Shown: positions 18,578 through 50,573, numbered from the stretch's first letter. The stretch: 64,000 nt of DNA from Acidobacteriaceae bacterium (GCA_035482415.1 DATHQT010000057.1:105944-169943); one strand, 5' to 3'. Notes: a model not told the origin generated them from the sequence alone. Program-made: numbers and translations.

Positions 18578-19996
18578 ATGATCAGGAACTTAGCAACAAG
18601 AGTGTTAACCGCGTCGCTGTGCTTCCTGCTGGTCATTGTGACCGGGCCGTTCGGAGCTGAGGTTCAACTATCGGCACAAGAGGCAGCGACGAATTATTCC
18701 GGACAAGGCGCACCGTTGACGGCGCAAGAGTTGCAGGGACTGGCCGCTCCTATCGCCCTCTACCCGGACGCCTTGGTTGCCCAGATTCTTGGCGCTTCTA
18801 CCTTCCCTGACCAAGTTGCCAGCGCCGGTATGTGGCTTGAGCAGAACCAGAGCCTCACCGGCCAAGCCTTGCTGCAGGCCGTTAATGCGCAGTCGTGGGA
18901 GCCGAGCGTGAAGGCGCTCACGCAATTTCCCACGGTACTGACCAACATGGCCAAGAACCTCAGTTGGACATCCGCGCTGGGCGAGGCCTACGCGACACAG
19001 TCCGCCGACGTGATGACCGCGGTGCAGGTATTGCGCGCAAAGGCGCAGGCTGCCGGCAATCTCAAGTCTGGCTCGCAGATTACGGTGGTGCAGCAGGCGC
19101 CGAATGTCATCGTCATTCAGCCCGTGAATCCGCAGGTGGTGTATGTTCCCACCTATAACCCCGCAGTGGTGTACGGGTACCCCTACGTTGTGCCCGGGTA
19201 TAGCACTGCAGCAGTCGTGACCACCGGTGTGATCGCATTTGGAGTAGGCATCGCTGTTGGCATGGCGATCAGTGGTGGCTACGGGTGGGGCTGGAATTCA
19301 TGGAACTGCGGCTGGCACGGTGGCACGGTTGTCTACCACGGCGGTTCGTACTACGGGAACTCTGCCTGGCATGGCAGCAGCTACTACGGCTCGAATGGGT
19401 ACGGTGGCTATGGCAGCGCTTCAAGGGGCTATAACCCCTCGACCGGAACCGTTGCGCGTGGGGGAACCGTCTCGAACGGTTACGGGTCAGTCAGCGGAGG
19501 TCAGGCGTACAACACAAGAACCGGCGCCTCCGCAGCTACGGTGCAGGGCTCCAACGCTTACGGCAGCTATGGTGCCTCGACGGCTTCGAAGAACGGCACC
19601 ACTGTTAACGCTCAGCACCAATCAAACTACAACGGGACCACCGGGCAGGCGCATTCGTCAAACGGCGGGAGCGCATATGCTGCTTCGGGGAAGTATGGCA
19701 ATAGCGCTGCTGTCGCTCAGACCGCAAATGGAAACAAATACGCTTCGGCCAACGGGAACACGTACAGCAATACAGGAAACGGCTGGAGCGGCAATTCGAA
19801 CAACACCCAGAAGGCCAACAGCTACAATTCATCCGCATCGAAAGGTTACGGATCACAAGAAAGATCGAGCAGTTCATCGGCCTTCGGCGGCGGCGGCAGC
19901 AACGGGTGGCAATCCAGGGCTGACAGTTCCCGTGGCGCGTCCAGCATGGGCGGCGGCGGCGGCTGGAGTCGCGGTGGCGGAGGAGGTCGTCGATGA
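18578..19996 (+). CDS. DUF3300 domain protein with a long Gly/Ser/Tyr/Asn-rich low-complexity C-terminus
   Basis: Signal or TM segment, then LAAPIALYPDALVAQILGASTFPDQVASAGMWLEQN (DUF3300 signature), a TM segment (VVTTGVIAFGVGIAVGMAI), and about 240 aa of G/S/Y/N-rich sequence ending GGGGGWSRGGGGGRR. Confidence 0.8.
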   Translation: MIRNLATRVLTASLCFLLVIVTGPFGAEVQLSAQEAATNYSGQGAPLTAQELQGLAAPIALYPDALVAQILGASTFPDQVASAGMWLEQNQSLTGQALLQAVNAQSWEPSVKALTQFPTVLTNMAKNLSWTSALGEAYATQSADVMTAVQVLRAKAQAAGNLKSGSQITVVQQAPNVIVIQPVNPQVVYVPTYNPAVVYGYPYVVPGYSTAAVVTTGVIAFGVGIAVGMAISGGYGWGWNSWNCGWHGGTVVYHGGSYYGNSAWHGSSYYGSNGYGGYGSASRGYNPSTGTVARGGTVSNGYGSVSGGQAYNTRTGASAATVQGSNAYGSYGASTASKNGTTVNAQHQSNYNGTTGQAHSSNGGSAYAASGKYGNSAAVAQTANGNKYASANGNTYSNTGNGWSGNSNNTQKANSYNSSASKGYGSQERSSSSSAFGGGGSNGWQSRADSSRGASSMGGGGGWSRGGGGGRR

Positions 19997-20070
19997 CTCA
20001 TTGCGGACCGCCGGATCCCGTGGACGAGACGAACCACAGAATTGCTATCAAGCCAAATTTATGGAGGACT

Positions 20071-21009
20071 ATGATGTCGCTCAACGGACGTAGAGTCGGT
20101 GTAACCAGTGGCTTAATCTTGGCGGCGGTGATGGTCGTTCTGGTTGCCTGCAAGAAAACGCCTTCGTACGAAACCTTTGCCAGTCCCGATGAGGCTGGCG
20201 ATGCGTTATTGCAAGCGGCCAAGTCAGGGGATCAGGACCAGGTGTTGGCAGTCTTCGGCCCTCAATCAAAGAACGTCATTTTTTCGGGGGACGCTACACA
20301 AGACAAGGCCTCGATCGACGCATATGTTCAGGCTTATGGGACGATGCACCGGTGGCGCAAGATGCCGGATGGCGCGCAACTGCTATTGGTGGGAGCTGAC
20401 AATTTTCCATTCCCAATCCCGCTCAGGAAAGCCAGCGATGGAAAATGGTTCTTTGATGCTGGAGCCGGGGAAGAGGAGATACTAAGGCGCCGCATCGGGC
20501 GAGACGAGTTAGCCGTGATAGACGTCTGTTACGCCATTGCGGATGCGCAGGCCCAGTACTATTCTCAACCTCGAAATGGCGAAAGCACACAACAGTTCGC
20601 GCCAAAGTTTATCAGCGATCCAGGCAAACAAAACGGATTGTATTGGGAGTCGGCGCAAGGTCAGCCGCCGAGCCCGCTCGGGCCGTTGGTGGCCTTTGCA
20701 ACCGGAGAGGGATATAACGTCAAGCCGAATGAGCACGTGCCTTTCCACGGCTACTATTTCAAGATGCTGAGCAACCAAGGAAGCAATGCCCCTGGCGGTG
20801 CAAAGGACTACTTAGTCAATGGAAAGATGGCGGGTGGGTTTGCATTGGTCGCGTATCCCTCTAACTACGGTAACTCGGGAGTGATGACCTTCATCATTAA
20901 TCAGGATGCTGTGCTGCTTCAAAAAGACCTTGGCAAGACAACCAACCAAACTGCAGAGGCAATGACAGCGTTCGATCCTGACAAAAGTTGGAGCATTGTT
21001 TCGGAATAA
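20071..21009 (+). CDS. DUF2950 family protein (probable lipoprotein)
   Basis: MMSLNGRRVGVTSGLILAAVMVVLVACKK fits a lipobox. Also AIADAQAQYYSQ, GLYWES, PFHGYYFKML and GGFALVAYPSNYGNSGVMTFIINQDAVLLQKDLG. GGAGG lies just upstream of ATG 20071. The track ORF begins at 19993 with an ATGA overlap on the DUF3300 stop. Confidence 0.75.
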   Translation: MMSLNGRRVGVTSGLILAAVMVVLVACKKTPSYETFASPDEAGDALLQAAKSGDQDQVLAVFGPQSKNVIFSGDATQDKASIDAYVQAYGTMHRWRKMPDGAQLLLVGADNFPFPIPLRKASDGKWFFDAGAGEEEILRRRIGRDELAVIDVCYAIADAQAQYYSQPRNGESTQQFAPKFISDPGKQNGLYWESAQGQPPSPLGPLVAFATGEGYNVKPNEHVPFHGYYFKMLSNQGSNAPGGAKDYLVNGKMAGGFALVAYPSNYGNSGVMTFIINQDAVLLQKDLGKTTNQTAEAMTAFDPDKSWSIVSE

Positions 21010-23178: not shown

Positions 23179-24603
23179 CTACGGGTGCAGCACGGGTGGT
23201 GCGATGTAGCCGAAATCCTGTTCAAGGATGGTAGCGATTGCGAGCACGTCTTCATCGCCATAAGGGCGTCCGGCAAGCTGCAGGCCGATCGGAAGGCCCT
23301 CTGCGGAGCGGCTGATCGGAACGACCGCGGCAGGAGCACCAAGCAGATTGAACCACTGCGTGAAGCGCATGGCATCAAGGTAGGCGAGTGGCCGCGATGC
23401 TCCATTCGCATCATGCAATGTCCAGTTGCGTTCGCCGTGACGAAACGCGGGGATCGAGCAGACGGGGCTTAGCAGGATAGGGAAGTCGCGCATCTCCGAG
23501 AGCAGTTGCGATCGGACGATATCGGTCTCGCACCAGGCATCGAGCAGTTCGGCGGCCGCGAGCGGCGGGTACGTGTGGGCGATCGACAGGAAGTCAAGGA
23601 ACGTGGGACTGAAGTCGGACTCGCGGCCGCGGCCCAATCGCTCCAGCAGCAGGGCGCCGCAGCGGGCAAAGAAGGTGTACCAGAGTTCTCGCGCGCGCTC
23701 GAGAGAAGCGGGCCGAAATGGCTCGACGTGAAACCCGTGGCGACGCAGCGAGTGCACGGCGTCCTGCACGGCCTGCCGCGTCTCCGCTGTTACAGGAACC
23801 AGGCCATCGTCTTCGAAGTAGCCGATGCGGATTCTCTTGAAAGCTTCCGGGGCCGAAGGTCGGTAGGGAACGGGCGCGGCGATGGGGTCGATGTCGAGTG
23901 CACCGGAGACTACGCGGAACAGCAACGTGACATCCGCCATGGTTCTGGCCATCGGGCCAACGGTGCCGAGTAAGGAAAATGGTCCCACATTGTCCGGGAG
24001 ATGGCCAGCCGTAGGAATGCGGCCGGGCGTTGGCTTCATCGCGCAGATGCCGGTGAAGTGAGCAGGCTCGCGAACCGATCCGCCGCCATCCGAGCCAAGG
24101 CCTCCCGCCGAGAGTCCGGCTGCAATTGCCGCTGACTCACCGCCGCTCGAGCCGCCTGAGGTGCGCGTCAGATCCCACGGGTTGGACGTGCGACCGTATA
24201 GGCGGTTGTCAGTCTCGTAGGCCATGAGAAACTCAGGGCAATTAGTCGTTCCAAGGATCAGCGCACCAGCTTTGCGCAGACGCTTGACAGTCTCAGCGTC
24301 GTCTGTTGGCCGATGGCCCTTATTGAGGAGACTGCCGGTCTCGCACAAGTGGCCTGCGACGGAGATAGAGCTCTTCACGGTGAGCGGAAGACCATGCAGC
24401 AGACCGCGTGGCGACGTCGAGCGATCCAGCGCCATCGCTTGATGGCGAATGTCTTTCGGATCGAAATCAATCAGCGCATTCAGGCTTGGATTTAGCTGTT
24501 CAATGCGTTGGATGTGCATGTCGGCGAGTTCGAGAACGGAGAGTTTCTTCGCCTCCAGAAGGGCGAGCAGATCGACAGCGGGTTGCGTGAGAAGATCGGT
24601 CAA
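23179..24603 (-). CDS. Amidase (amidase-signature family)
   Basis: AS motif GGSSGGESAAIAAGLSAGGLGSDGGGSVREPA. I moved the start to TTG 24603 (AGGAAA 7 nt upstream), which is 10 nt after the upstream stop. The track ATG at 24690 would overlap the upstream gene by 77 nt. Confidence 0.85.
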   Translation of the reverse strand: MTDLLTQPAVDLLALLEAKKLSVLELADMHIQRIEQLNPSLNALIDFDPKDIRHQAMALDRSTSPRGLLHGLPLTVKSSISVAGHLCETGSLLNKGHRPTDDAETVKRLRKAGALILGTTNCPEFLMAYETDNRLYGRTSNPWDLTRTSGGSSGGESAAIAAGLSAGGLGSDGGGSVREPAHFTGICAMKPTPGRIPTAGHLPDNVGPFSLLGTVGPMARTMADVTLLFRVVSGALDIDPIAAPVPYRPSAPEAFKRIRIGYFEDDGLVPVTAETRQAVQDAVHSLRRHGFHVEPFRPASLERARELWYTFFARCGALLLERLGRGRESDFSPTFLDFLSIAHTYPPLAAAELLDAWCETDIVRSQLLSEMRDFPILLSPVCSIPAFRHGERNWTLHDANGASRPLAYLDAMRFTQWFNLLGAPAAVVPISRSAEGLPIGLQLAGRPYGDEDVLAIATILEQDFGYIAPPVLHP

Positions 24604-24613
24604 TTCAGATTTC

Positions 24614-27600
24614 CTATGGCTGGGTTTCCGGTGTCGACGCTTGCGGAACGTAGTTGAACTTGAATGAGCGATCCACCGCACCCGACTCAAAGCGGGTGTT
24701 GTACTCGAGCTGATAGGCCGTGTGAGCAGCGTCCGTCGGGTAGTGCTCGGTTGCCGGATAGGGATAGCTGCTCATCCCATGGAAGGGCAGGCTGCCGACG
24801 CTGAACGGTCTGGCCTCGTAGAAGTCCATGTCCTTCACAAAGCCATTCGCGTAAAAGAAGTAGTCGCGCGACCAACCCTTGGGCAGCGCGGGGAGAGTGG
24901 CCGCGCTAAACTCCAGGTCCATGTCCTCACCAGTTCCGAAGATCACGAACTCGTCGTCAATCGCGTGCAGGAGCGGCGTCACATCGCCGTATCGCGTGTA
25001 CGCTCCGCGATGTGGAACGAAGGGCCCAGTGGCGCTCATACGCTGATAGTTGTAGGTGAGGTCGCCCGGCGTGCGCCCATCCAGCTGTTGCGGATATCCG
25101 CGGAAGGCCAGCGTGGCATGGGCCAGCGGAAGCTCAGTGGACTGCGTTGCTAACCCCGCGTTATCAGGCTGCTGTGGTGGCGAGGCTTCGTTGTCGACCA
25201 GCGCCTGGTCCCAGTAAATTTGCAGGTTGGTTGTGATGCGCAAACGCGTTACGCCGGCAGGAAACTTGCCCGTGAGATCAACCGTGACGGTGCGCGGCAA
25301 GCCGGCAGGAAAGCCCATGTCGGCAACCACCTTTCGCCAGGAACCATCGGGCATCTGAGCCTCAATATACGGCGGAATGGGCGAGAGGCCCGCCTGCCAT
25401 GCAGAGTACATAGAACTCGCTGAGAAGTATTCGATGAACCCATGCAGCAGAAGTTGGAGAGGCCACTGCGGCGACCACGCCCCAATGTCGATGGTCAACG
25501 AATGAAGATTTGCGAAGCCAGCGAATGGAAGGTTGGTGAAGTCGCGGACATAAGTCCGTGTCTCGCGATCACTGATATTGCGCTGGCGGAGCACGTCGAG
25601 CACGTTGTTGCCGTGGTCGTCCCAGGCGCCGGCCAGCGGACGCGCGGCTGCGGCAACGATTGTCTTTTCCTTGGCGAAGGGCCGCTCGGAGAGAAAACCT
25701 TCGTTGGGAAAGACACTCGTCCCGGACGGGTGATCGATGGCGACCAGCCGAACCTGGTCGACAAAGTTGACCTCCTCCATGGGCTCGCCGAAGCGAAGAC
25801 TGAAGAGTCCGTTGCGCTGCTGCAGTTGATCACCCTCCACCTTGATCCACTCGTCGGGGTCTGGAATATTTGTGCGCGCAGGCGACACCCAGTGACCAAT
25901 CACCGCCGCGCCGATCACATCCGCGACGAAGTTGTAGCGGGTTCCATTCCATGCAAAGAGGGTTGGGCACGAACTCCCGCGACGATCGATCTCGGTAATG
26001 GGATGCAGGTCGCTCGCCGCGACATCGATCTCATCCTGCGGAACTCCGGTGGGCCACAGCAGTCTCACCAGGTCCGCCTTGTCTGCGCTGCCAAGGCCGG
26101 CAAGAATCTCGCGCTGGCCGGTATCCTCCCACTTCTGCCAGAGCCCATTTGCGAAGACCTGAACCTTGGTGCCGATACCAGTCTTGTTGTCCGCAGCGCC
26201 ATGCAGCACGACGTGCAGCGAGTGGTTGCGGTTGCCACCGACATTCGCAAGCAGCACGCTCGAGCCGTCCGCGTGGGTCACAATCAAATCCGCAGCGCCC
26301 GTGTGATTTACGTCGTCCGCAAGCAGCGAGCGCGGTGAGCGAAGATGGATTTCATTCAGTTTGAGTTCTGCGCTGACATCCACGAAGCCGGCGGGTCCAA
26401 GATTGCGCAGCACTCGAAGTTCAGGACCACGCCGCGTTTGCACCAGCGCTGCAATATCAATCCAGCCGTCATTGTCGAAGTCAATCGGGATCGCCGCTGT
26501 GGCGCTGAGAACGTCCTTCATCGGCAGTGTAACGCGCTCGAAGTTTTTGCCATCGACGTTGCGCCAAAGCGTCACGCCCGGTTCGCTGGAGTGCGACAGA
26601 AGTACATCCATCCACCCATCCTTATTGAAGTCCAGGGTAGCAACCGAGACGGTCGGCGGCAGGCTCGCCGTGTACAGTGGCGAAGACCCGAACGGTCCTT
26701 CACGATGATTCGAGAAGAAGGTAGGAGCAGAGGTTTTGCCCGCCACCAGTAGATCCACGGCACGGTCATTGTTCAGATCTGAAAGGATTGCCGCAGACGT
26801 CGGAGCCGTCCCTTCAAGTCCGGCCGGCTTGGTCCAATCCGTGAAGGTCTTGTTGCCGTTGTTGCGCCACAGCGCGTTGGCCGATCCATGCGAGGCCGTC
26901 GGAGTTCCTGTGATGAAGAGGTCGAGATCCCCATCATGGTCATAGTCGACGAACATCAGGCTGGTCGGGTGGCTGGTATCCGAAATGCCAGAGACGGCAG
27001 TGGCATCTTCAAATTTCCCGTTGCCAAGATTGCGATAGAGCGCGATGCGATCCTGTCCATCCGGGCTGGTCACCGCCAGCGCCAGGTCCGGAAGTCCATC
27101 GTTGTCAAAATCGCCGACGGCGCACGCGAGACCCGTGCCAGCGAGGTGAATGCCCGTAACGGTGGAGGGAACTTCCGCAAATCGAGTCGAACCCGCGCGG
27201 TCAAACACGCGGATAGCATCGTCGCCTTTGCCCATCAGGATAATCGCTGGTTCGTTGTCGGATGATGGATCCAGGAGGCATGCTGCGCCGCTCATGCCGG
27301 TCGTTGCCGTGGCCGCAGGGTGCGAGCTCCACGACTCGCGGAACGTGACCGGGATCATCGCTTCAACGCGGGTCGGCGCAAGCGCAGCATCTTCCACGCG
27401 CGCGTAGATTCCTTCCTCTCCATAGTTGTGCGAGAGCGGCGTCCCGAGCTTGGTGGAGCTGATATGTTGAAAGCGAGCAAGAGCCTGCTGGGCGCCGGCC
27501 GTGTCCCCTTCGCGGCGAAGAACGCGCGCAAGACCAAACAAAGCAGAAGCGTGATGCGGGTCCAGCTCCAGCGCCTTCTGATACTCCGCCTTCGCGGCTG

Positions 27601-28087
27601 AAAGATTGTTCAGCTCGAAATCGACGGACGCAATCATGTAGTGCGTGTCAGGATCGCCCGGCCGAAGCGCGGCAACCTTCTGGAAGGCCTCCAGAGCTTT
27701 GTCTGGTTGATTCTCGTTGCGATAGAGCAGACCAAGGGCATACCAGACATGAGGATCCTTCGGATCTTCGACGGCCGCCGCCTCAAACAGTTGCTTCGCG
27801 TCCGGCAGCTTCTGCAGATACATGAGGGCGATGCCTTCATTCACCTTGGCCAGGGTGAGGCTCGGATCGGCCTTGGCTGCGGCGGCAAAGGTGCTGACCG
27901 CGCGGTCGAGGAACTGCTGGCCTACCAGCGCAGTCCCGAGATTGTTGAGGCGCGCCGCCTCAATCGCTGAGGTCTGCTGCTGGGCGCGGAGCATCGGGGA
28001 AAATGCCGCTGAAATGACCACCACACCCAGGCTCAGGCGCCGCGTGGCTCGTGCTGCAATGTTGCGTTCATCGAAGAAGACAGGCAT
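24614..28087 (-). CDS. 1157-aa exported TPR + FG-GAP/VCBS repeat + ASPIC/UnbV protein (CRTAC1-like) with a long C-terminal extension
   Basis: Signal peptide and N-terminal TPRs (AVEDPKDPHVWYALGLLYRNENQPDKALEAFQKV...). Repeated FG-GAP/VCBS motifs follow (GDFDNDGLPDLAL, VDYDHDGDLDLFI, DFNKDGWMDVLL, DFDNDGWIDIA). ASPIC/UnbV-like segment: NHSLHVVLHGAADNKTGIGTKVQV. Confidence 0.8.
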   Translation of the reverse strand: MPVFFDERNIAARATRRLSLGVVVISAAFSPMLRAQQQTSAIEAARLNNLGTALVGQQFLDRAVSTFAAAAKADPSLTLAKVNEGIALMYLQKLPDAKQLFEAAAVEDPKDPHVWYALGLLYRNENQPDKALEAFQKVAALRPGDPDTHYMIASVDFELNNLSAAKAEYQKALELDPHHASALFGLARVLRREGDTAGAQQALARFQHISSTKLGTPLSHNYGEEGIYARVEDAALAPTRVEAMIPVTFRESWSSHPAATATTGMSGAACLLDPSSDNEPAIILMGKGDDAIRVFDRAGSTRFAEVPSTVTGIHLAGTGLACAVGDFDNDGLPDLALAVTSPDGQDRIALYRNLGNGKFEDATAVSGISDTSHPTSLMFVDYDHDGDLDLFITGTPTASHGSANALWRNNGNKTFTDWTKPAGLEGTAPTSAAILSDLNNDRAVDLLVAGKTSAPTFFSNHREGPFGSSPLYTASLPPTVSVATLDFNKDGWMDVLLSHSSEPGVTLWRNVDGKNFERVTLPMKDVLSATAAIPIDFDNDGWIDIAALVQTRRGPELRVLRNLGPAGFVDVSAELKLNEIHLRSPRSLLADDVNHTGAADLIVTHADGSSVLLANVGGNRNHSLHVVLHGAADNKTGIGTKVQVFANGLWQKWEDTGQREILAGLGSADKADLVRLLWPTGVPQDEIDVAASDLHPITEIDRRGSSCPTLFAWNGTRYNFVADVIGAAVIGHWVSPARTNIPDPDEWIKVEGDQLQQRNGLFSLRFGEPMEEVNFVDQVRLVAIDHPSGTSVFPNEGFLSERPFAKEKTIVAAAARPLAGAWDDHGNNVLDVLRQRNISDRETRTYVRDFTNLPFAGFANLHSLTIDIGAWSPQWPLQLLLHGFIEYFSASSMYSAWQAGLSPIPPYIEAQMPDGSWRKVVADMGFPAGLPRTVTVDLTGKFPAGVTRLRITTNLQIYWDQALVDNEASPPQQPDNAGLATQSTELPLAHATLAFRGYPQQLDGRTPGDLTYNYQRMSATGPFVPHRGAYTRYGDVTPLLHAIDDEFVIFGTGEDMDLEFSAATLPALPKGWSRDYFFYANGFVKDMDFYEARPFSVGSLPFHGMSSYPYPATEHYPTDAAHTAYQLEYNTRFESGAVDRSFKFNYVPQASTPETQP

Positions 28088-28132
28088 GTTCGCTCGCGTT
28101 CGAGGCTGTTGATTGTTCCAAAGATCCGGTGA

Positions 28133-29260
28133 TTAAGATATACGCCTGATCGCTAGTTTCAGGGCGTCGCATACGGCTGCGATCTGTGAATCGTTAATCC
28201 GATTGAAGAAGGGAAGCGCAATGGTGCGCGAGGCGATCGACTCGGTAACGTGAAGGTCCGCGGCAGTCAGAAGGTCGGCGTAGGCCGGCTGCAAATGAAT
28301 GGGTGCGAAGTATCGAGCGCAGCCGATGCCGGCCTGCTCAAGCTCCTTGATCACCTGGTCTCGGTGCGCGGCAGTAAACGCATCTGCAAGACGGACCACA
28401 TAGACGAACCAGCTGATACGGCGGCCAGGGATCTCGTCGATCGGAAGAGTGAGGCGAGTCTCTGCGCATAGCTGCCGGTGATAGATGCGCGCGATTTCCT
28501 CGCGCCGGTCGAGAATAGCGGCCAGGCGCCGCATCTGCCCAATTCCGAGCGTGCACGCGATCTCGGACAGCCGATAGTTGTACCCAATCTCTGTGTGTTG
28601 CACCCAGCTGTCAGTCGGCGCGCGCCCCTGGTTGCGCAAGCTCCGCATCCGCGCAGCAAGATCGGGATCGCGCGTCACGATCATGCCGCCCTCGCCGGTC
28701 GTGATCTGCTTGTTGGGATAGAAGGCGAAGACGGCAACGTTGCCGAAGGAGCCAATCGGCTGCGAGTCAATGGTCGCGCCGAGAGCTTCACAAGCATCCT
28801 CAATCAAGGCAAGCTTATGGTGCTGCGCGAGCGCCACCAGCGCGGGCATATCGGCAGGAACGCCGAACGTATGTACGACGACGATGGCCCGCGTGCGCGA
28901 GTTGACTGCCCGCTCGACCGCGGCCGGCGACAGGTTAAGCGTGATGCAGTCAATGTCAGCAAACACAGGAGTCGCGCCAACATAACGAATCGCGTTGGCT
29001 GCGGCGATGAAGGTGAACGAGGGAACGATGACCTCGTCGCCCGCGCCGATCCCGAGCGCCAGCATCGCGAGGTGCAGCCCTGCGGTGCCCGAGCTTACCG
29101 CAACTGCGTGCGCGACCCCCGTCAGATGCGTGAACGTCGCCTCGAACTCTGTCAGACGCGCCCCCAGGCTGAGTTGTGGGGAGCGCAGTGTCGCAGCCAC
29201 GGCTTCAATTTCAGCTTCGGTAACATCGGGCGATGAGAGAGGAATCTTCGGCGAAGTCAT
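28133..29260 (-). CDS. DegT/DnrJ/EryC1/StrS-family sugar aminotransferase (PLP-dependent)
   Basis: MTSPKIPLSSPDVTEAEIEAV..., VPSFTFIAAANAIRYVGATPVFADID, NKQITTGEGGMIVT. ATG 29260 forms an ATGA overlap with the stop of the upstream epimerase. The track ORF's 114-aa N-terminal extension overlaps that gene and is rejected. Confidence 0.85.
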   Translation of the reverse strand: MTSPKIPLSSPDVTEAEIEAVAATLRSPQLSLGARLTEFEATFTHLTGVAHAVAVSSGTAGLHLAMLALGIGAGDEVIVPSFTFIAAANAIRYVGATPVFADIDCITLNLSPAAVERAVNSRTRAIVVVHTFGVPADMPALVALAQHHKLALIEDACEALGATIDSQPIGSFGNVAVFAFYPNKQITTGEGGMIVTRDPDLAARMRSLRNQGRAPTDSWVQHTEIGYNYRLSEIACTLGIGQMRRLAAILDRREEIARIYHRQLCAETRLTLPIDEIPGRRISWFVYVVRLADAFTAAHRDQVIKELEQAGIGCARYFAPIHLQPAYADLLTAADLHVTESIASRTIALPFFNRINDSQIAAVCDALKLAIRRIS

Positions 29261-30429
29261 TTGGCTGACAGAAGCTCCGCGGGAAGTGACTGGGCGCGCT
29301 TGTGCAGCAAACTCTCGAGCGGTGTCGAGGTCAGCACACCCACGATTCGCTCCGCAGCGTGACCATCGCCGTAGATGTTCTTCATGGATCGAAGGCTCTC
29401 GCGGAAAGCAGGCCGTCGGGACCGGGCAACCTGCACGAGGATGGAGCCGACCGAAGCCGCAGCATCCAGAACGTTGGGACCACGCTCGCGACCTTGCTGC
29501 CGCATTCCTACGTTCACCACCGGCAGCGCAAAGGACGCAGCCTCCATGATGCCGCTGCTGGAGTTGCCCAGCAGCACACTTGCCTCGCGCAGAAGGCTCC
29601 AATAGGTAATCGAAGCAAGGTTGATAAACAAATGCGCGTCAGGATGTACATTGCAAAACGCTCGAATGCGAGCCATCAGCTCGTGGCTCCCGGCGTCGGC
29701 ATTGGGATAGCAAAAGATGATCTGCCCGGAAAGACCTTCGATTGCTGCGAAGACCGCATTCGCTTCGGCCGTTGTGTCCTTGAAGAGGGTAACGGGGTGA
29801 TACGCAACGACGATAACATCCTCCGCCAGCGAAACCTCAAGCGCCCTCTCAAGTTCAGCGCGCGTGAGCAGGGTGCTGCGGCGGATGTGGTCCAGCGAGG
29901 GCGCGCCGGCGCGATGCACACGCCACGGCTCTTCTCCCATGGAGATCACCCGGGCCCGCGCAATATCGGTCGAGGTGAAATGAAGGTGAGCCATCTTGGT
30001 GAGTGCGTTGCGGACAGCATCGTCGATAGCGCCCTCGCTGATCTCGCCCCCTTCGATATGCGCGACGGGGATCCGCAAGGTAAGTGCGACGCTGGCCGGT
30101 GCAAGCATCTCGTAGCGATCCGCGATCAGCAGCAACAGGTCCGGGCGCATGTGGGCGAGCGCGTCCGTGAGGCCGAGAACCGCAAGCCCAAGCGTCTTGG
30201 CCATACCGACGTCGCTGTCCGAACTGAGCAGGCATTCAATTCGCGACGCGATCGGAAAGCCGTCCCGCTCGATCTCGCTGACCGTGGCGCCGAACTCGGG
30301 CGAAAGATGCGCTGCGAGCACGATCAACTTGAGGTCAACTTCAGGATGCGCTTGGAGATCCCTTAGCACCCAATAGAGATGGCTGTAATCGGCGCGCGAG
30401 GACGTGACGACCGCGATGGTGCGTTTCAT
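29257..30429 (-). CDS. UDP-N-acetylglucosamine 2-epimerase, hydrolysing type (NeuC/LegG-like)
   Basis: KRTIAVVTSSRADYSHLYWVLRDL and VAHIEGGEISEGAIDDAVRNALTKMAHLHF match the NeuC-type signatures. ATGA overlap with the upstream dehydratase stop at 30426-30429. Confidence 0.8.
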   Translation of the reverse strand: MKRTIAVVTSSRADYSHLYWVLRDLQAHPEVDLKLIVLAAHLSPEFGATVSEIERDGFPIASRIECLLSSDSDVGMAKTLGLAVLGLTDALAHMRPDLLLLIADRYEMLAPASVALTLRIPVAHIEGGEISEGAIDDAVRNALTKMAHLHFTSTDIARARVISMGEEPWRVHRAGAPSLDHIRRSTLLTRAELERALEVSLAEDVIVVAYHPVTLFKDTTAEANAVFAAIEGLSGQIIFCYPNADAGSHELMARIRAFCNVHPDAHLFINLASITYWSLLREASVLLGNSSSGIMEAASFALPVVNVGMRQQGRERGPNVLDAAASVGSILVQVARSRRPAFRESLRSMKNIYGDGHAAERIVGVLTSTPLESLLHKRAQSLPAELLSAK

Positions 30430-31625
30430 GCGCGCATCTCCGTTGCCAGCCTCAGCGCAGAGTCTTCCTTGCGCGCGGCCAGGATCAGGCTACTGGGTTG
30501 GTACTCGGGCACAAGGAACTGAATCGCGCGTAGCAGTTCCTGCAAGTCGCGCCCACGGGCAGCATCGCGGAGCGTGTCCAGTGCATCGCTCATCTCCGCC
30601 GCAGCAGGTATCGGGGTGTGGATGGTCCGCAGACCCGAGCCACCGAGCTCATCTTGCGAACGCAGCGACTCGGGGCTCGAAACAAGCTGTTCGGAAAGCT
30701 TGTCGCCAGGGCGCAACCCGGTGAATTCGATGGACGCCAGGCTTTGGTGGTGCGCAATTAGATATCGCGCCAAGTCGAGGATGCGGACCGCAGGACCGAC
30801 GCTGGGGAGAATGAGCGCCTTGTCGGATTCCACATCCAGCGCGGCGAATAGTACTCGGACAGCTTCGTCCAACGTGATGAAGTAGCGCTGCGCCTCGGGG
30901 TGGGTTACGCTGACCGGGCCGCCCAAGGCAATCTGCTCAAGAAACAATGGAAGCACGCTGCCCTGCGAACCCATCACGTTGCACAGGCGCGCCACCTTCA
31001 TGCGTGTGGAACCCGGCAGGCTGAGAAGAAGGAGCTCTGCGATGCGTTTGGACGCGCCCATGATACTGCGCGGTTCAACCGCCTTGTCCGTGGAGACGAG
31101 AACAATCTGTTCTACCTCGTGTGCGATCGCAGAATGCGCCAGGGCATACGTGCCGAACACGTTCTGTTCAATGGCCGCAAACGGATTTTGTTCCATCAAT
31201 GGAACGTGCTTCAGAGCTGCTGCGTGGAAGATGATCTCGGGTCGATGCTCCGTCAAGGCACGATCGAGCGTATCGGAATTGCAGACGTCGCCGAGAAGGG
31301 AAACATGTTCTCTCGAACCAGCCTCATGCAGACTGCGATCGACCTGGTAGAGCCCATTCTCCGAGCTGTCGAGGAGCACCAGGCTGGCAGGCAGGGACGC
31401 CGCCGCTGCATGCGACAAGGCCGATCCGATGGACCCTCCCGCTCCCGTAATCAGAACGCGTCTTCCTGTCAGGGACCGCGATCCGAGCAGCCGCCAACTC
31501 GCCGGAGAGCTCGGTGCGATCAGCCGGTCCCAGAACACGGCACCGTGACCCTGGGGCCCGGCAATGCGAAGATCCGTTGAAGCCGCCGTTTGCATGTGTC
31601 TACAGTCTAGAGAATTTCTCCGCAT
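30426..31625 (-). CDS. Soluble CapD/PglF/PseB-like NAD-dependent nucleotide-sugar 4,6-dehydratase
   Basis: Rossmann motif GRRVLITGAGGSIGSAL. FHAAALKHVPLME is typical of the CapD/FlaA1 group. No TM domain. The start could also be the internal ATG (MQTAAS...). Confidence 0.8.
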   Translation of the reverse strand: MRRNSLDCRHMQTAASTDLRIAGPQGHGAVFWDRLIAPSSPASWRLLGSRSLTGRRVLITGAGGSIGSALSHAAAASLPASLVLLDSSENGLYQVDRSLHEAGSREHVSLLGDVCNSDTLDRALTEHRPEIIFHAAALKHVPLMEQNPFAAIEQNVFGTYALAHSAIAHEVEQIVLVSTDKAVEPRSIMGASKRIAELLLLSLPGSTRMKVARLCNVMGSQGSVLPLFLEQIALGGPVSVTHPEAQRYFITLDEAVRVLFAALDVESDKALILPSVGPAVRILDLARYLIAHHQSLASIEFTGLRPGDKLSEQLVSSPESLRSQDELGGSGLRTIHTPIPAAAEMSDALDTLRDAARGRDLQELLRAIQFLVPEYQPSSLILAARKEDSALRLATEMRA

Positions 31626-31805
31626 CGGTCACAACTGCCGGTTTCTGCGTGCAATACCCGGCGTGTCCATCGATCGGTGGAGGAGGACACCCTTCAATAA
31701 GTCCAATACGCCACACGTCTAAGTTGGTATACCTGAATCATCTCCCAACGATCAGAAGCTTGAAAGAGCGCGCCGGCGGACCGTTCCGCTTGCGCGAAGG
31801 CCTTT

Positions 31806-33284
31806 ATGGACGTCGTCGGGAAGATCGCATGTGCAGGTTTGGGTATAGCCCTGTGCTTTGGGTGTGAGGCGGCTGCCTTCACGCAGCGTGCCACGCAGCC
31901 CGGCATTTCCGTCGCCGCGAAGAGGTTGCAGGGTCCCACAGACATCGCCTTCATTCAGACGCTCGAATTCAGACCGGGCAATCCCGCGCAGCGCTTTCCG
32001 CTTGGCAGCCGGCTCGTGCGCTTGCGCCTCGGGGCCGATGGCACGGCATCCTCCATTGCCACCCCCCTGACGCTACAGTTCTTTGCCGCTGCTGATCCCC
32101 AGGTCTCTTTCGACGGCAGCGAGCTGCTCTTCGCCGGCCAAGCCCAGCGCGGCGCCACGTGGCAGATATGGGCGATGCCGGTGGACGGCGGGGCTTCACG
32201 GCAGATCACTCATTGCGCCGGAGATTGTGTCCAGCCCGCGTACCTGCCGGGTGGCGAGATCGCTTACACGTCGCTGCGAGGCGCGGAACCTGCCCGTGCG
32301 TCGGAGGTGCAAGTCTGCCGCAACGACGGATCTGATGTGCATCCGATTACGTTTGGGCCCGGCAGGTACGAAATCGAGGCCGTTTTGCGCAGCGGCCGAC
32401 TGCTGCTGTCTGCCGAGTCGCCGCTGGGGGACAGCCGTGAGGCAGAACCGCTGCGAACACTGTATCTGGTCGACCCGGATGGGTCAGGGTTGATGCGGCT
32501 GCGACAAGACGATCGTGCGCGGGCTACTCATAGCAGCGCTGTCGAGCTGGCGGACGGGACCATCCTCTTCATGCAGCGGAATGCGACGAGCACTTCGGAA
32601 GGGCGCCTCGCCTGGATCCGTCCCGGAGCCTTGAACGCCACGGCCATCGAGCACACGCATTCGGAATATGCGTCGGCGACCGCGCTCGACGATGAGACGC
32701 TGCTGGTATCGCGGCGCGCCCCGGGACTTCGCTTCGATCTGTATCAACTCTCTCTAAACAGTGGCGGCCGCGAGCAGTTGCTCTACCGGGATGCGCACGC
32801 GTCGAGCGTTCAGGCCGTTCATATTGTTCCCCATCCCGCAGCGCTCGCTTACCGCAGCATTTTGCATCCGGATCGTACATCCGGACGCATCATTTGTCTC
32901 GACGCCTATGCTTCCAAAGATTTTGCTAACGGTCGCTTGCCCGGGCCGATCGTGCGCGTGCGAGCTCTCATGAAGACGCAGAGCGGCGAGAAGATTCTGG
33001 GAGAAGCCCCGGTCGAACGCGACGGATCGTTTTACGCGACAGTGCCCGCGGATCTGCCGATACGCCTGCAGTTGATTGGCGCAGAGGGTGAAGTTCTGAA
33101 GCAGCAGCGCAGCTGGATGTGGGTGCGTAATGGGGAAGATCGCGGATGCGTTGGGTGCCATGAGAGCCAGGCGCTGACGCCAGAGAATCGTTCGCCAATG
33201 ACCTTGCAGCGCCTCGATACACCGACGCCGCTCATGGGTGAACGGGTCTCTAACCCAGGCACGCAGAAGGGAGCGCGACCTTGA
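31806..33284 (+). CDS. Exported PD40/TolB-like beta-propeller protein with a C-terminal single CxxCH haem-c motif (HzsA-middle-domain-like candidate)
   Basis: Hydrophobic N-terminus IACAGLGIALCFGC. PD40-like blades (GSELLFAGQAQRGATWQIWAMPVDGGASRQIT; LYLVDPDGSGLMRL). The C-terminus reads WMWVRNGEDRGCVGCHE, with CVGCH at nt 33147-33161. Confidence 0.55.
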   Translation: MDVVGKIACAGLGIALCFGCEAAAFTQRATQPGISVAAKRLQGPTDIAFIQTLEFRPGNPAQRFPLGSRLVRLRLGADGTASSIATPLTLQFFAAADPQVSFDGSELLFAGQAQRGATWQIWAMPVDGGASRQITHCAGDCVQPAYLPGGEIAYTSLRGAEPARASEVQVCRNDGSDVHPITFGPGRYEIEAVLRSGRLLLSAESPLGDSREAEPLRTLYLVDPDGSGLMRLRQDDRARATHSSAVELADGTILFMQRNATSTSEGRLAWIRPGALNATAIEHTHSEYASATALDDETLLVSRRAPGLRFDLYQLSLNSGGREQLLYRDAHASSVQAVHIVPHPAALAYRSILHPDRTSGRIICLDAYASKDFANGRLPGPIVRVRALMKTQSGEKILGEAPVERDGSFYATVPADLPIRLQLIGAEGEVLKQQRSWMWVRNGEDRGCVGCHESQALTPENRSPMTLQRLDTPTPLMGERVSNPGTQKGARP

Positions 33285-34996
33285 GAGCTTCACTGAAAAT
33301 TTGCACGGTGTTCATTGCAATCTCATTGCCGGCATTCGCTGGGCGGTCCACTGCGCAGACAGCCGCTGTTGCGGTAGACAAGGTAACCCATGCGATTCCG
33401 CTTCCGCAGTTCGAGGATGTGACGAAGAAGTCCGGGATCGACTTCCAACACTCCTTCGGCGAAAAGACCTTGAGTTCGATCCAGGAGGGAACAGGATCGG
33501 GCTGCGCCTGGATCGACTACAACAACGACGGGTGGATGGATCTCTACATCGTGAACGGACGGCATGTCGATGGGCTCACCGACCACTCTGCACCGGATGG
33601 GATGGACGCGACCAACCACCTCTATCGCAACAATGGCGACGGCACCTTCACCGACGTAACGGTGCAGGCGGGTGTTCCGGGCAATGGCTTCGGTGTCGGC
33701 ATCACGGCGGGAGACTTCGACAACGATGGCAACGAGGACCTCTACGTCACCAATTACAACTCGGCGATCTTGTATCACAACAACGGAAATGGGGCCTTTA
33801 CGGACATTACTGCGAAGGCCGGCGTGACCAACCTGAACTTCGGAACGGGCGCCGCCTTCCTCGATTATGACCGCGACGGACGCCTTGATCTCTTCGTCGG
33901 CAACTACCTGAAGTACGATCCCAGCAACCGGCAGTTTTATTCAGCGCAGCAATACCCGGGGCCGCTCGAATACGCGCCGGAGACCAATCGGCTCTTCCAT
34001 AACAACGGCGACGGAACATTCACCGATGTCTCCACGGCATCCGGCATCAGCGCTCAGCCCGGGCGTGCCATGGGCGTCACGGTCGGAGACTTTGACGGCG
34101 ATGGATGGCCCGACGTCTACGTTGCGAATGACACCATGGCAAGCTTCCTCTATCACAACAATCGCAACGGTACGTTCACCGATGTCGCCGCCGAAATGGG
34201 CGCGGCCTACGGACAGAACGGCGAGGCTTCCACCGCGATGGGTCCCGTCTTCGGGGACTATGAGAACAAGGGACGCCAGGGGTTATTCGTCTCCGATGCC
34301 CACTTTCACCGGCTGCTGCGCAACAGCGGCAAGCCGGGCGAGCCGTTCGAAGATGTGACCAACGAATCAGGGGTCGGAGCGGTCTCAGGACAGTTTGTTG
34401 GCTGGGGCGATGGCCTCTTCGACTTCGATAACGATGGATGGAAGGACCTGTTCATCGTGAATGGCGGCCTGGTGTGGCTCATCCCCCAACAGAGTTCGCT
34501 GCTGCGCAACAACGGCGACGGGACATTCGCGGACATCTCCCTGCAGGCGGGAAGCTTCTTCTCAACCCAGATTGTCAGCCGCGGTGCCTGCTTTGCTGAC
34601 TACGACAATGATGGATATGTCGACGCGTTTGTCGTAACACTGGGCGGCAAGGGAATTCTGCTGCACAACACGCCGCCGGCAGTGAAGCGCAATCATTGGC
34701 TGACGATCAAGCTGGTGGGGACGCGCAGTAATCGCGACGGCTATGGAGCCAGCCTCGAGGCAATTGCCGGAGACCTGCACCAATGGGTGCAGTCCACGTC
34801 GGCCAGCGGATACCTCTCGCAGAATGATCCGCGTCCACACTTCGGCCTGGGTCAGCATGAGGTCGTGGATACCCTGACAATTCATTGGCCCAGCGGAACC
34901 GTCCAGACCCTGCACGATATCCGGGCGGACCAGGTACTCAAGATCACCGAGCCCGCCGCAAGCGGCGTTACCCCTACAAAGGGGAAGACGCCATGA
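33281..34996 (+). CDS. CRTAC1-like protein (FG-GAP/VCBS repeats + ASPIC/UnbV)
   Basis: Signal peptide ICTVFIAISLPAFAGRSTAQ. Repeats: IDYNNDGWMDLYIVNG, GDFDNDGNEDLYVTN, LDYDRDGRLDLFVGN, GDFDGDGWPDVYVAN, FDFDNDGWKDLFIVNG, ADYDNDGYVDAFV. ASPIC/UnbV segment: NHWLTIKLVGTRSNRDGYGASLE...SGYLSQNDPRPHFGLG. The TTG start overlaps the upstream stop (TTGA). Confidence 0.8.
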   Translation: MRASLKICTVFIAISLPAFAGRSTAQTAAVAVDKVTHAIPLPQFEDVTKKSGIDFQHSFGEKTLSSIQEGTGSGCAWIDYNNDGWMDLYIVNGRHVDGLTDHSAPDGMDATNHLYRNNGDGTFTDVTVQAGVPGNGFGVGITAGDFDNDGNEDLYVTNYNSAILYHNNGNGAFTDITAKAGVTNLNFGTGAAFLDYDRDGRLDLFVGNYLKYDPSNRQFYSAQQYPGPLEYAPETNRLFHNNGDGTFTDVSTASGISAQPGRAMGVTVGDFDGDGWPDVYVANDTMASFLYHNNRNGTFTDVAAEMGAAYGQNGEASTAMGPVFGDYENKGRQGLFVSDAHFHRLLRNSGKPGEPFEDVTNESGVGAVSGQFVGWGDGLFDFDNDGWKDLFIVNGGLVWLIPQQSSLLRNNGDGTFADISLQAGSFFSTQIVSRGACFADYDNDGYVDAFVVTLGGKGILLHNTPPAVKRNHWLTIKLVGTRSNRDGYGASLEAIAGDLHQWVQSTSASGYLSQNDPRPHFGLGQHEVVDTLTIHWPSGTVQTLHDIRADQVLKITEPAASGVTPTKGKTP

Positions 34997-36969: not shown

Positions 36970-38111
36970 GACCGGCAATGAATGCGAACAAAATCACGAG
37001 CGTACTCCGAAGGGCTCTTCTGAGTGTGGCATTGCCACTCGCCGCACTGCCGTGCGTCCGTGCACAGGCGCCGGCGCCGGATCGGGCGGCCAAACCCGCG
37101 CTCTACACGAAGTGGATCAATTACACCGCGGCGAACGGATTTCCAGAGGGTGAGGTGTATTGCGTGACGGTCGACGGCACACGCGTATGGGCCGGGACAT
37201 CGCATGGACTCGTCCTGCTCGAAGGTGGCCGCGTGAAGAAAGTGTTCACGCCAGAAGATGGCTTAGCCGGCCGTGCGGTGATGTCGATCGCGGTCGACAA
37301 ACAAAACGGCGATGTGTGGGTGGGAACTTTCGGCGGCCTGAGTCTTTATTCGGGTGGGAAATTCCAGAGCTTCACAAACCTCAACAGCGGCCTCGCCAAC
37401 GATCTCGTGTATGGCGTCGCGATGCAGGGGCAATTTCTTTGGGTTGCAACAGCCGCCGGAGTCAATCGCCTCGATACAAACTCTGGAAGCTGGTCGATCT
37501 TCAATGAAACCAATGCACCGTTCAATGAGCCATGGGCCTACGGAATCTCAGTTGCTCAGCAGAAGGTGTACTTCGCCGTCTGGGGCGGGGGAGTTCTGGC
37601 ATACGATCTCGCAAAAGAAACCTGGAAGCCGTTCACCGACCCCGACGGGGAGCAAGAACTAGTTCTCTATCGAAACCAGGGGTTGATCCACAACATCGTC
37701 AGCAGCGTTTCTTACAACACGGACACGAAGACGTTTTGGGCCTCCACCTACTTTGGTCTCAGCAGCTACGATGGCCGAAACTGGCACAACTACCTCACCA
37801 AGGACAGCGGACTGGCCTCAAATTTCATCAACGCCGTACAGTCGCGCGGCGACAACGTATGGGCCTCCACGCAGAGCGGCCTGAGCCAGCTCGACACCAG
37901 AACCAACACCTGGATCACCTATAACCGGAATCAAAAAACCGGGCGCGGCGAGATCCTCGTCACGAGCGCGGATGGCGGCAAGCAACGGATCGCCACGGAG
38001 ACCAGCCTGGCGCACAGCTACATTCTCAACACAGCATTTCAAGGCGACGACATCTGGGTGGCGACCGCACAGGGTCTGAGCCATGGTATCCGCGCACAAC
38101 CGAAGGAGTAA
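36966..38111 (+). CDS. Exported beta-propeller protein with two-component-regulator-propeller (Reg_prop)-like repeats
   Basis: Signal peptide LLSVALPLAALPCVRAQA. Repeated motifs of the form GxxVxxIAVDxxGxVWVGTxxGLSxY: VYCVTVDGTRVWAGTSHGLVLL, VMSIAVDKQNGDVWVGTFGGLSLY, VYGVAMQGQFLWVATAAGVNRL, INAVQSRGDNVWASTQSGLSQL. ATGA overlap with the upstream stop. Confidence 0.6.
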   Translation: MRPAMNANKITSVLRRALLSVALPLAALPCVRAQAPAPDRAAKPALYTKWINYTAANGFPEGEVYCVTVDGTRVWAGTSHGLVLLEGGRVKKVFTPEDGLAGRAVMSIAVDKQNGDVWVGTFGGLSLYSGGKFQSFTNLNSGLANDLVYGVAMQGQFLWVATAAGVNRLDTNSGSWSIFNETNAPFNEPWAYGISVAQQKVYFAVWGGGVLAYDLAKETWKPFTDPDGEQELVLYRNQGLIHNIVSSVSYNTDTKTFWASTYFGLSSYDGRNWHNYLTKDSGLASNFINAVQSRGDNVWASTQSGLSQLDTRTNTWITYNRNQKTGRGEILVTSADGGKQRIATETSLAHSYILNTAFQGDDIWVATAQGLSHGIRAQPKE

Positions 38112-38116
38112 AGACT

Positions 38117-38641
38117 ATGAGCCCCACGATCGTAGCAACGCACAACATGACGAATGAAACCATAGGCGCACACAAGCCGATTCGCAAAAAGGCGATGTCC
38201 GCTCCCAAGGCGCTCAACGAGGCCTACAAGTACCAGCGCCCCTCGTCCTTCTCGCGCGGCATGCGCCTGGACATCAAGGGCATTACCATCCTGATGATCT
38301 CGGGGACAGCCAGCGTTGGAGAAAACGGCGAGACCGTTCATCCCGGCGACTTCGGCGCACAAACCAAACGCGCCTACCAGAACGTCACCGAGCTGCTGAA
38401 GTCCGAAGGCGCTACCTGGAAAGACGTGGTCCGCACAACCTGCTACCTCCGCGACATTGAGCGCGACTACGAGCAATTCAATCTGATCCGCACGGAGTTC
38501 TTCAAAGAACAGGGCCTCGAAATCCTGCCAGCCTCCACCGGCATCCAGGCCATCCTCTGCTGGCCAACCCTTCTCTATGAGATGGAAGCCATGGCAATCT
38601 TCGAAACACCTGCATCCATCGATCCGCCGCACTTGAGATAG
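38117..38641 (+). CDS. RidA/YjgF-superfamily protein (possibly a chorismatase-like FkbO/Hyg5/XanB2 single domain)
   Basis: [62 protein letters not shown]. The ISGTAS variant, rather than the classical RidA SGQ, recalls the chorismatase group. AAGGAG RBS. It starts 6 nt after the upstream stop. Confidence 0.65.
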
Positions 38642-38661
38642 CCAAGGTAAGGAGCTCCAAC

Positions 38662-39588: not shown

Positions 39589-39617
39589 AGGTGATTGTCG
39601 ATCCGGAGATTCGAACG

Positions 39618-50362: not shown

Positions 50363-50473
50363 CCCTAACCTTGTGGCCGGGATGCATCTCAATGCCTCCC
50401 GGCCAGACTTTTCAGAGGTGCGGCCATTCCACCGGCCACCCAAGCACCCGCTATCAATTCAGTGCCTCCATCG

Positions 50474-50506: not shown

Positions 50507-50573
50507 GTCACGTAAAATAACCGTGAAGCTCGGTTGTCCTTCCCGCCACCACGACGATACAGCTCAATTTTTC

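Follow-up and report, generated by a model that had tools for sequence, protein, structure and literature searches.

The legionaminic acid pathway of Campylobacter, Legionella and Acinetobacter runs through LegB/PglF, LegC, LegH, LegG, LegI and LegF, and the three types of enzyme that are the subject of this comparison (a nucleotide-sugar 4,6-dehydratase, a DegT-family aminotransferase and a hydrolysing 2-epimerase) normally begin the synthesis of sialic-acid-like sugars. PglF-type and DegT-type enzymes are also the standard start of bacillosamine-type glycosylation of proteins and lipopolysaccharide. Genes for all three, here called the trio (capD-neuC-degT), occur on the minus strand of a 64,000-nucleotide stretch of DNA from an Acidobacteriaceae bacterium (GCA_035482415.1, DATHQT010000057.1:105944-169943), which we refer to as the window. 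At positions 23179-31625 of the window the trio is followed by the gene for a very large protein, presumably exported (the giant), and by an amidase gene. Our comparison of acidobacterial genomes indicates that the trio very probably does not belong to a nonulosonic-acid pathway and that its link with the amidase and the giant is likely to be a functional one. The trio probably feeds an undescribed pathway. The fuller interpretation, in which the trio is the orphan front end of a bacillosamine/legionaminic-acid-type pathway, uncoupled from nonulosonic-acid synthesis in the Acidobacteriaceae and tied to the amidase and the exported protein, seems to us evenly balanced between being right and being wrong, and the specific chemistry that we propose for it is tentative and rather doubtful. 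The features of the locus are as follows.

31626-31805, no strand: intergenic region common to the trio operon and a divergent exported-protein operon (sequence reading)
30426-31625, minus strand: PglF/CapD-type uridine-diphosphate N-acetylglucosamine (UDP-GlcNAc) 4,6-dehydratase, 399 amino acids, first gene of the trio (PF02719, structures)
29257-30429, minus strand: LegG/NeuC-type hydrolysing nucleoside-diphosphate N-acetylhexosamine (NDP-HexNAc) 2-epimerase, 390 amino acids (TIGR03568, structures)
28133-29260, minus strand: DegT/DnrJ/EryC1 sugar 4-aminotransferase, 375 amino acids (PF01041, structures)
28088-28132, minus strand: gap of 45 nucleotides between degT and the giant (sequence reading, consensus scan, fold test)
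24614-28087, minus strand: giant, a predicted exported protein of 1157 amino acids, with a signal-like N-terminus, tetratricopeptide repeats (TPR), an FG-GAP propeller, an ASPIC-like stretch and a beta-sandwich C-terminus
27446-27904, minus strand: TPR region of the giant, residues ~62-214 (TPR_2, TPR_16, TPR_19 and PknG_TPR matches)
26198-27130, minus strand: FG-GAP beta-propeller of the giant, residues ~320-630, limits approximate (FG-GAP_3, 119 bits)
26015-26179, minus strand: ASPIC/UnbV-like stretch of the giant, residues 637-691, sub-threshold (PF07593, 17.7 bits)
25181-25651, minus strand: galactose-binding-domain-like beta-sandwich of the giant, residues ~813-969, resembling carbohydrate-binding modules (CBM) 32 and 35 (AF2 model and VIA-align)
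23179-24603, minus strand: amidase-signature enzyme, predicted cytoplasmic, 474 amino acids from TTG 24603 (PF01425)

The five open reading frames form a tightly packed run. The epimerase starts on the stop codon of the dehydratase through an ATGA overlap at 30426-30429, degT starts in the same manner on the epimerase stop at 29257-29260, and the TAG stop of the giant (24614-24616) is followed by 10 nucleotides and then by the TTG start of the amidase, with an AGGA about 8 nucleotides upstream of the TTG. The run, the two overlaps and the 45- and 10-nucleotide gaps, all described in an earlier sequence-only reading of the window, are thus borne out by the coordinates. The TTG start is supported because alignments with orthologues begin at query residues 1-14. 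A consensus scan revealed no terminator-like or promoter-like site in the degT-giant gap, where such a site would have told against the proposed common operon, nor in the giant-amidase gap, and folding of the 45-nucleotide gap is no stronger than that of shuffled controls (z = +1.07). Close relatives (L037-L039) share both the order of the five genes and a gap of about 45-50 nucleotides, so that the tight packing is conserved among them. In the usual layout of the relatives, the giant-amidase operon begins across from the trio, on the other side of an intergenic region of the kind seen at 31626-31805. Neither a sigma-70-like nor a sigma-54-like consensus was found in 31626-31805, and a sigma-54 promoter scan of the whole window yielded 41 matches against 34 expected by chance, none of them in that region.

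Family and structure scores agree with the identities that had been given to the three enzymes (4,6-dehydratase, DegT aminotransferase and hydrolysing 2-epimerase). The dehydratase matches Polysacc_synt_2 (PF02719) at 285 bits, PseB (TIGR03589) at 155 bits, under the cut-off of 407.75, and LegB (TIGR04180) at 39 bits; its nearest solved structure is Campylobacter jejuni PglF/WlaL (5bju, 189.6 bits), followed by CapE (118) and PseB (2gn4, 113). These scores assign it to the NDP-HexNAc 4,6-dehydratase step of the legionaminic acid pathway, as a predicted enzyme of PglF type and not of LegB type. The aminotransferase matches DegT (PF01041) at 401 bits, PseC at 337 bits (cut-off 423.5) and LegC at 300 bits (cut-off 420), and its nearest structures are perosamine synthetase (3bn1, 279 bits) and ArnB (233), PglE (1o61) being distant at 131. 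As equivalogs of pseudaminic acid synthesis, therefore, neither the dehydratase (PseB) nor the aminotransferase (PseC) reaches its cut-off. The epimerase matches Epimerase_2 at 264 bits and NeuC_NnaA (TIGR03568) at 428.9 bits, well over the cut-off of 235.9, and its nearest structure (5xvs/5zlr, 272.9 bits) is a hydrolysing GDP/UDP-N,N'-diacetylbacillosamine 2-epimerase.

Were the epimerase instead a non-hydrolysing one, the trio could deliver a nucleotide-activated sugar, which a transferase encoded elsewhere would attach to exported proteins (those with propellers or haem) or to the cell envelope. The PglF-type and DegT-type enzymes are typical of the start of bacillosamine-type glycosylation and the neighbours of the trio are exported proteins, both of which speak for such a route, yet the score of the epimerase on the hydrolysing family compares with only 71.9 bits on wecB, and its nearest structure is hydrolysing as well. 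A reference-genome scan with the NeuC protein found 553 relatives, and we examined the best 80 loci, which belong to many acidobacterial genera at 62-89% identity; counts over these loci include short ones, and presence means within reach of NeuC. In the 80 loci we saw no recurrent gene for a glycosyltransferase, oligosaccharyltransferase, flippase or acetyltransferase next to the trio, and we consider a glycosylation route of this kind improbable.

The sequence-only reading had remarked that the acetyltransferase, the NeuB-like synthase and the enzyme activating the product with cytidine monophosphate (CMP) are absent from the window. By profile search they are absent as well from the window's genome (G000), which is 95.6% complete, and no full legionaminic or pseudaminic acid gene set was found just beyond the region. 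The best PF03102 match for NeuB in this genome, at 43.8 bits, falls on a DAHP synthase gene (TIGR03569 gives 22 bits), the NeuB models being prone to cross-hit DAHP synthases. The best match to a NeuD/PglD-type acetyltransferase (TIGR03570) reaches 70 bits against a cut-off of 160.8, with none in the window, and the sole strong CTP_transf_3 hit that might indicate a CMP-nonulosonate synthetase (191.5 bits) is KdsB, over the TIGR00466 cut-off. According to these profiles, the pathway is truncated genome-wide, without NeuB, a PglD/NeuD-type acetyltransferase or a cytidylyltransferase beyond KdsB. In the same taxonomic order, canonical legionaminic-acid clusters (G003, G037) comprise a PtmE-like nucleotidyltransferase, a LegB-type short-chain dehydrogenase/reductase, DegT, PglD, NeuC, NeuB and a CMP-transferase, and they sit inside Wzx/Wzy/Wzz exopolysaccharide loci. 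A hexapeptide acyltransferase gene that follows degT in 18 loci was considered as the missing acetyltransferase and rejected; it is probably housekeeping DapD, since it is single-copy in all five searched genomes of genus g9 and a 69%-identical copy lies on another contig of G000.

A complete nonulosonic-acid pathway would still be conceivable if NeuB had been replaced by another phosphoenolpyruvate-condensing TIM barrel, the second DAHP-synthase paralogue encoded in the window at 38662-39588, which is the third DAHP_synth_1 gene of the genome, the other two being those of the housekeeping DAHP synthase (contig C63) and of KdsA (C62). This paralogue lacks the N-terminal regulatory domain, its EVH-PNP stretch is altered by a 5-residue insertion and a His-to-Ser change, it occurs in the neighbourhood of the trio in 27 of the 80 loci (directly after the amidase in the common layout), and the cross-hits of the NeuB models noted above concern this very family. 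However, its KPRT motif is intact and its scores lie above the cut-offs for DAHP-synthase families (345 bits versus 335, and 311 versus 268); we take KPRT to bind the phosphate of the substrate, which a 6-deoxy sugar cannot carry. The paralogue also travels with the hydrazine-synthase-like (HZS-like) haem cassette described below, being present in nearly the same loci, and not with the trio, and no CMP-transferase was found in the genome or in the 80 loci. With its KPRT motif and family scores intact, the paralogue was set aside as a substitute for NeuB, and we hold a complete pathway of this design to be highly improbable.

The phylogeny of NeuC separates the trio from the canonical clusters. 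A quick IQ-TREE analysis (LG+G4) took in 106 copies, selected for minimum values of 90% coverage and 40% identity; partial or frameshifted copies, among them that of L040, were excluded. All NeuC copies that are linked to a giant or an amidase fall into one clade of 99 rows (SH-aLRT 99), and those of canonical clusters (G003, G037, G138, G139, G176, G227 and one of G191) fall outside it. The NeuC of the window is 62-92% identical to members of the clade and 40-47% identical to the canonical copies. For 32 rows of the clade no partner lies within reach, some of these rows being on short contigs.

Within the genus of the window (37 genomes, that of the window included; the tallies include unpublished genomes, none of them among the giant carriers), a giant orthologue is present in 14 genomes, and all 14 carry NeuC. 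The sole other NeuC carrier of the genus, G003, has a canonical legionaminic-acid cluster. Twelve of the 14 giant carriers have no real NeuB, and six of these twelve are 97-100% complete. Four gene orders are found in the genus: capD-neuC-degT-giant-amidase, as in the window; the trio and giant-amidase in divergent orientation; the trio and the amidase in divergent orientation, with a giant paralogue after the trio; and giant-amidase with the trio further along on one strand.

The wider set of 80 loci gives a similar picture. Near NeuC we found the dehydratase in 58 loci, DegT in 58, a giant-like gene in 47 and the amidase in 42, as against NeuB in a single locus and a PglD-like gene or a CMP-transferase in none. 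Where at least 9 kb is available on either side of NeuC, 32 of 49 loci contain the giant-like gene. Giant orthologues that never neighbour sugar genes, which the sequence-only reading had named as an outcome that would speak against it, are therefore not what these genomes contain. Its proposal that the genes share an operon describes a minority layout: the giant is co-directional and downstream of the trio, as in this window, in just 7 of the 47 giant-bearing loci, more commonly divergent and upstream (37 loci), and co-directional upstream in the remaining 3.

At the level of the order, an even sample of 201 genomes was searched, in which NeuC passes its cut-off in 51, the giant (E<=1e-100) is present in 109, an amidase orthologue (E<=1e-110) in 89 and NeuB (E<=1e-40) in 63. 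The giant occurs in 50 of the 51 NeuC carriers versus 59 of the 150 non-carriers, and the amidase in 48 of the 51. In 38 of the 51 carriers the distance between NeuC and the giant is at most 10 kb (coordinates read by eye), and NeuC is linked to the giant and/or the amidase within about 10 kb in 42 of them, in at least four gene orders, which upholds the linkage of the sugar genes to both partners that had been seen in the window. Dropping the unpublished genome G122 from the carriers leaves the giant in 49 of 50, the amidase in 47 of 50 and linkage in 42 of 50. The association of trio, giant and amidase is not due to chance. Among the 42 linked genomes, 34 are without NeuB, and five of the eight that have it possess a second NeuC copy, situated within 5 kb of NeuB in G139, G227 and G176 and about 40 kb from it on the same contig in G138 and G143. 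Where the giant and the amidase are apart, the trio remains with the amidase: in G066, G097, G144 and G151 (three of them checked by tblastn) the amidase comes immediately after the trio, and the giant lies at a distance or on a different contig. The link between trio and amidase is at least as tight as that between trio and giant.

The two partner proteins belong to recognisable families. The amidase matches PF01425 at 336.8 bits (cut-off 27) with a readable GGSSGG stretch, which places it in the amidase-signature family, and it reaches the cut-off of none of the NCBIfam amidase models, so that no specific equivalog is indicated. Its nearest structures are generic amidase-signature amidases, the ClbL amidase, FAAH and GatA, at 144-184 bits; ClbL, the colibactin amidase, forms an amide and does not break one.

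The translation of the giant begins with a hydrophobic stretch with an RR pair, which we read as a putative export signal. The FG-GAP repeats characteristic of the CRTAC1/ASPIC-UnbV family are present (FG-GAP_3, 119 bits over six stretches, beginning at residue 323), and the propeller part is 26-29% identical, in relatives, to the FG-GAP/ASPIC paralogue at 33281-34996. The ASPIC/UnbV domain that the giant had been credited with does not hold at the Pfam threshold (UnbV_ASPIC, PF07593: 17.7 bits where 23.4 are required, E = 0.0033), and the nine UnbV_ASPIC genes detected in the genome do not include the giant, which likely carries a diverged copy of the domain, to judge from this sub-threshold match. 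Residues ~700-1157 match no Pfam family. An AF2 model of residues 690-1157, based on a 32-sequence orthologue alignment, is all-beta (pLDDT 67, pTM 0.70, with about 30% of the model at pLDDT <50). Within this model, residues ~813-969 align by VIA-align with CBM32, CBM35 and F5/8-C domains (Z 8-10.4, root-mean-square deviation ~3 Å over ~115-140 residues), matches that cover one C-terminal sub-domain only. Foldseek gave only weak jelly-roll matches for the C-terminal model (TM <0.27). The CBM-like resemblance of the model concerns a common fold and may be taken as a weak functional hint. Full-length orthologues of the giant occur in relatives at 35-90% identity, and the matches in the ESM Atlas are acidobacterial clusters without names only.

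From the known chemistry of these enzyme types, the PglF-like enzyme would convert UDP-GlcNAc to a 4-keto-6-deoxy sugar, DegT would add an amino group at C4, and the LegG/NeuC-type enzyme would epimerise C2 and remove the nucleotide, the expected product being a free manno-type 2-acetamido-4-amino-2,4,6-trideoxyhexose. The route would stop at the free sugar because no synthase or CMP-transferase was found. Going by gene linkage, the amidase may act on an amide or amine group of the sugar, either de-N-acetylating it or carrying out amide transfer at the 4-amine, and the exported protein with its CBM-like module may bind the product, or a related compound from outside, or make use of it, beyond the cytoplasm. 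The sequence-only reading had offered ligand, modification or adhesin matrix as possible roles of the sugar in a link with the giant. A still more specific version, in which the free diamino-trideoxy-hexose is made as a small molecule for its own sake and not for building glycans, is tailored by the amidase, and acts outside the cytoplasm as a ligand of the exported propeller proteins or as their substrate, and likewise for the HZS-like haem enzymes in genomes that have them, we consider quite improbable; if true, it would amount to an amino-sugar-based extracellular nitrogen chemistry of undescribed kind.

Several observations weigh against this interpretation of the trio. NeuC, present in 51 of the 201 genomes, is far less widespread than the giant (109) and the amidase (89), and since the amidase is found without NeuC in 41 genomes, neither it nor the giant needs the product of the trio. 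Giant and amidase also occur without sugar genes, which makes the trio an optional addition to a core formed by these two. In genera g15, g21, g25 and g32, the operon consists of the amidase, a multihaem cytochrome/TPR protein, an ASPIC protein, the giant and an amino-acid permease, with a glycoside hydrolase family 2 exo-beta-D-glucosaminidase and a YdjC-like gene near it, and this arrangement fits the uptake of an outside compound better than the use of a home-made sugar. Relatives of the giant in family f2 (35-38% identity) have neither trio nor amidase within 8 kb, and no amidase orthologue was found in 28 genomes of that family. In 33 of the 80 NeuC loci neither partner is within reach, and some of these loci consist of dehydratase and epimerase only, among unrelated genes. 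The NeuC clade is not uniformly free of NeuB, as a small subclade within it adjoins NeuB (L131/G191:C54). The hydrolysing activity of the epimerase is predicted from its family membership, and no amidase-signature enzyme is known to de-N-acetylate sugars. Finally, our counts overstate the number of separate events, because related genomes are not independent.

A rival explanation is an inherited neighbourhood without shared function, in which the trio makes an envelope sugar and the giant-amidase pair takes up or processes an outside nitrogen compound. The giant is without NeuC in 59 of the 201 genomes, the trio-free genera have a permease and a cytochrome inside the amidase-giant operon, the genes are apart in 9 of the 51 NeuC genomes, and all carriers come from one bacterial family, which implies strong shared ancestry. 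Against mere inheritance, the proximity outlasts at least four rearrangements (co-directional, divergent, amidase in between, and trio with amidase only), across which giant orthologues are merely 46-64% identical; the giant is nearly universal in NeuC carriers and in the minority elsewhere, and when the pair is split the trio goes with the amidase. An inherited neighbourhood of this kind appears unlikely to us, if less so than the glycosylation route, and a functional link of the trio with amidase and giant is the interpretation that we prefer.

Downstream of the intergenic region, on the plus strand, the window contains a series of associated genes.

31806-42132, plus strand: associated optional modules, whole stretch (family searches)
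31806-38111, plus strand: hydrazine-synthase-like haem cassette (alpha-like, FG-GAP/ASPIC, beta-gamma-like propeller with di-haem peroxidase, Reg_prop)
38117-38641, plus strand: RidA/YjgF-like gene with a faint chorismatase-N match, preceding the DAHP-synthase paralogue
38662-39588, plus strand: second DAHP-synthase paralogue, passing DAHP-synthase cut-offs
39591-42132, plus strand: two Peripla_BP_6 binding proteins (family search)

In the common layout of the relatives, these modules lie downstream in the co-directional string giant-amidase-DAHPS-HZS. Of the 201 genomes sampled from the order, only 33 have the HZS-alpha-like gene, and NeuC accompanies it in 20 of these, which marks the cassette as a further optional module and not as the partner of the trio.

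Some other contexts of the same genes were observed. In the loci L152, L154, L157 and L161 (G173, G160, G153 and G126), from genera without NeuC, the amidase heads the cytochrome-ASPIC-giant-permease operon, and the multihaem cytochrome/TPR protein of such genera is about 950 amino acids long with Cytochrome_C554 and MtrC-like matches. A second recurring context within the same NeuC clade (L082, L084, L085, L088, L094, L108 and L150) has dehydratase and epimerase without DegT; upstream of this pair are a pyridoxal-phosphate-dependent decarboxylase, a PhzF-like isomerase, a response regulator and an ABC-2 exporter, and a sigma-54 activator comes after it. In L083, a metagenome-assembled Alloacidobacterium genome, the trio directly follows murG at the end of a dcw-type string of Mur ligases, MraY, MurD, FtsW and MurG. 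On contig C3 of G028 (L040/L011/L032), a genome 65% complete, the giant, degT, neuC and the amidase are in several frame-shifted pieces, which suggests either sequencing errors of a long-read assembly or decay of the whole island.

Elsewhere in the window, a DUF3300/DUF2950 gene pair (18578-21009, plus strand) adjoins the island here and in close relatives, and is met again next to the dehydratase and epimerase genes in three distant loci (L087, L089 and L104). The region 46496-54414 encodes a 1288-residue outer-membrane barrel (CarboxypepD_reg and OMP_b-brl_4), a 740-residue TPR protein and, convergent with them, a 598-residue FG-GAP/ASPIC protein that is the third FG-GAP/ASPIC-type gene of the window; it is adjoined by a sigma-54 two-component pair (54425-58820). 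Tad/Flp pilus genes (RcpC/CpaB-like and a secretin; 1231-3629, plus strand) occupy the left end of the window and are unrelated to the finding.

NeuC/LegG-type hydrolysing epimerases serve genome surveys as markers of sialic-acid-like sugars. Because a large NeuC clade occurs in abundant soil bacteria whose genomes are mostly without the synthase, marker surveys would mis-call these copies. The link to the trio also gives a first genomic handle on two very common, uncharacterised acidobacterial families, the amidase and the CRTAC1-like exported protein, and names a concrete small molecule as a possible connection between them. Full-text literature searches (Acidobacteria with nonulosonic, NeuC or legionaminic; CRTAC1, FG-GAP or UnbV) returned no description of this association.

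The closest described gene clusters for the neighbouring cassette are the HZS-like clusters of non-anammox bacteria, with alpha, CRTAC1/FG-GAP and beta-gamma genes and two binding proteins (Genome Biol Evol 2025, PMC12758564). The same cassette stands divergent beside the trio in the window and co-directional after giant-amidase in most relatives; the main text of that paper, as far as a search for terms goes, mentions no amidase, epimerase, aminotransferase or DAHP. An ASPIC/UnbV paralogue is listed in the genome tables for Solibacter (PMC3174227). The window itself holds two clear members of the CRTAC1/ASPIC-UnbV family, at 33281-34996 and 52618-54414. The giant resembles this family in having an FG-GAP propeller followed by an ASPIC-like stretch, and differs from it by an added N-terminal TPR region, a C-terminus of about 460 residues that is modelled as beta-sandwich and belongs to no Pfam family, and an ASPIC match that is sub-threshold.

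With the bacillosamine pathway PglF-PglE-PglD (N-glycosylation in Campylobacter, O-glycosylation in Neisseria), the trio shares a dehydratase nearest to that of C. jejuni and a subsequent DegT-family aminotransferase. It differs in the aminotransferase being much closer to perosamine synthetase than to PglE (279 against 131 bits), in having neither PglD, PglC nor other transferases, and in possessing an epimerase predicted to be hydrolysing, which would destroy the nucleotide sugar. The legionaminic acid pathway is similar in its 4,6-dehydratase, its DegT-family 4-aminotransferase and an epimerase whose nearest relative is the Acinetobacter LegG-type enzyme (5xvs). In contrast to that pathway, the trio is without N-acetyltransferase, NeuB/LegI and CMP-transferase in the window, in the genome and in 79 of the 80 loci, its dehydratase is of PglF type, and its NeuC clade is apart from the copies in legionaminic-acid clusters of the same order. 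The enzymes are of known kinds; their employment without NeuB, and the conserved way in which they are coupled to an amidase and to a CRTAC1-like exported protein, appear to be undescribed.

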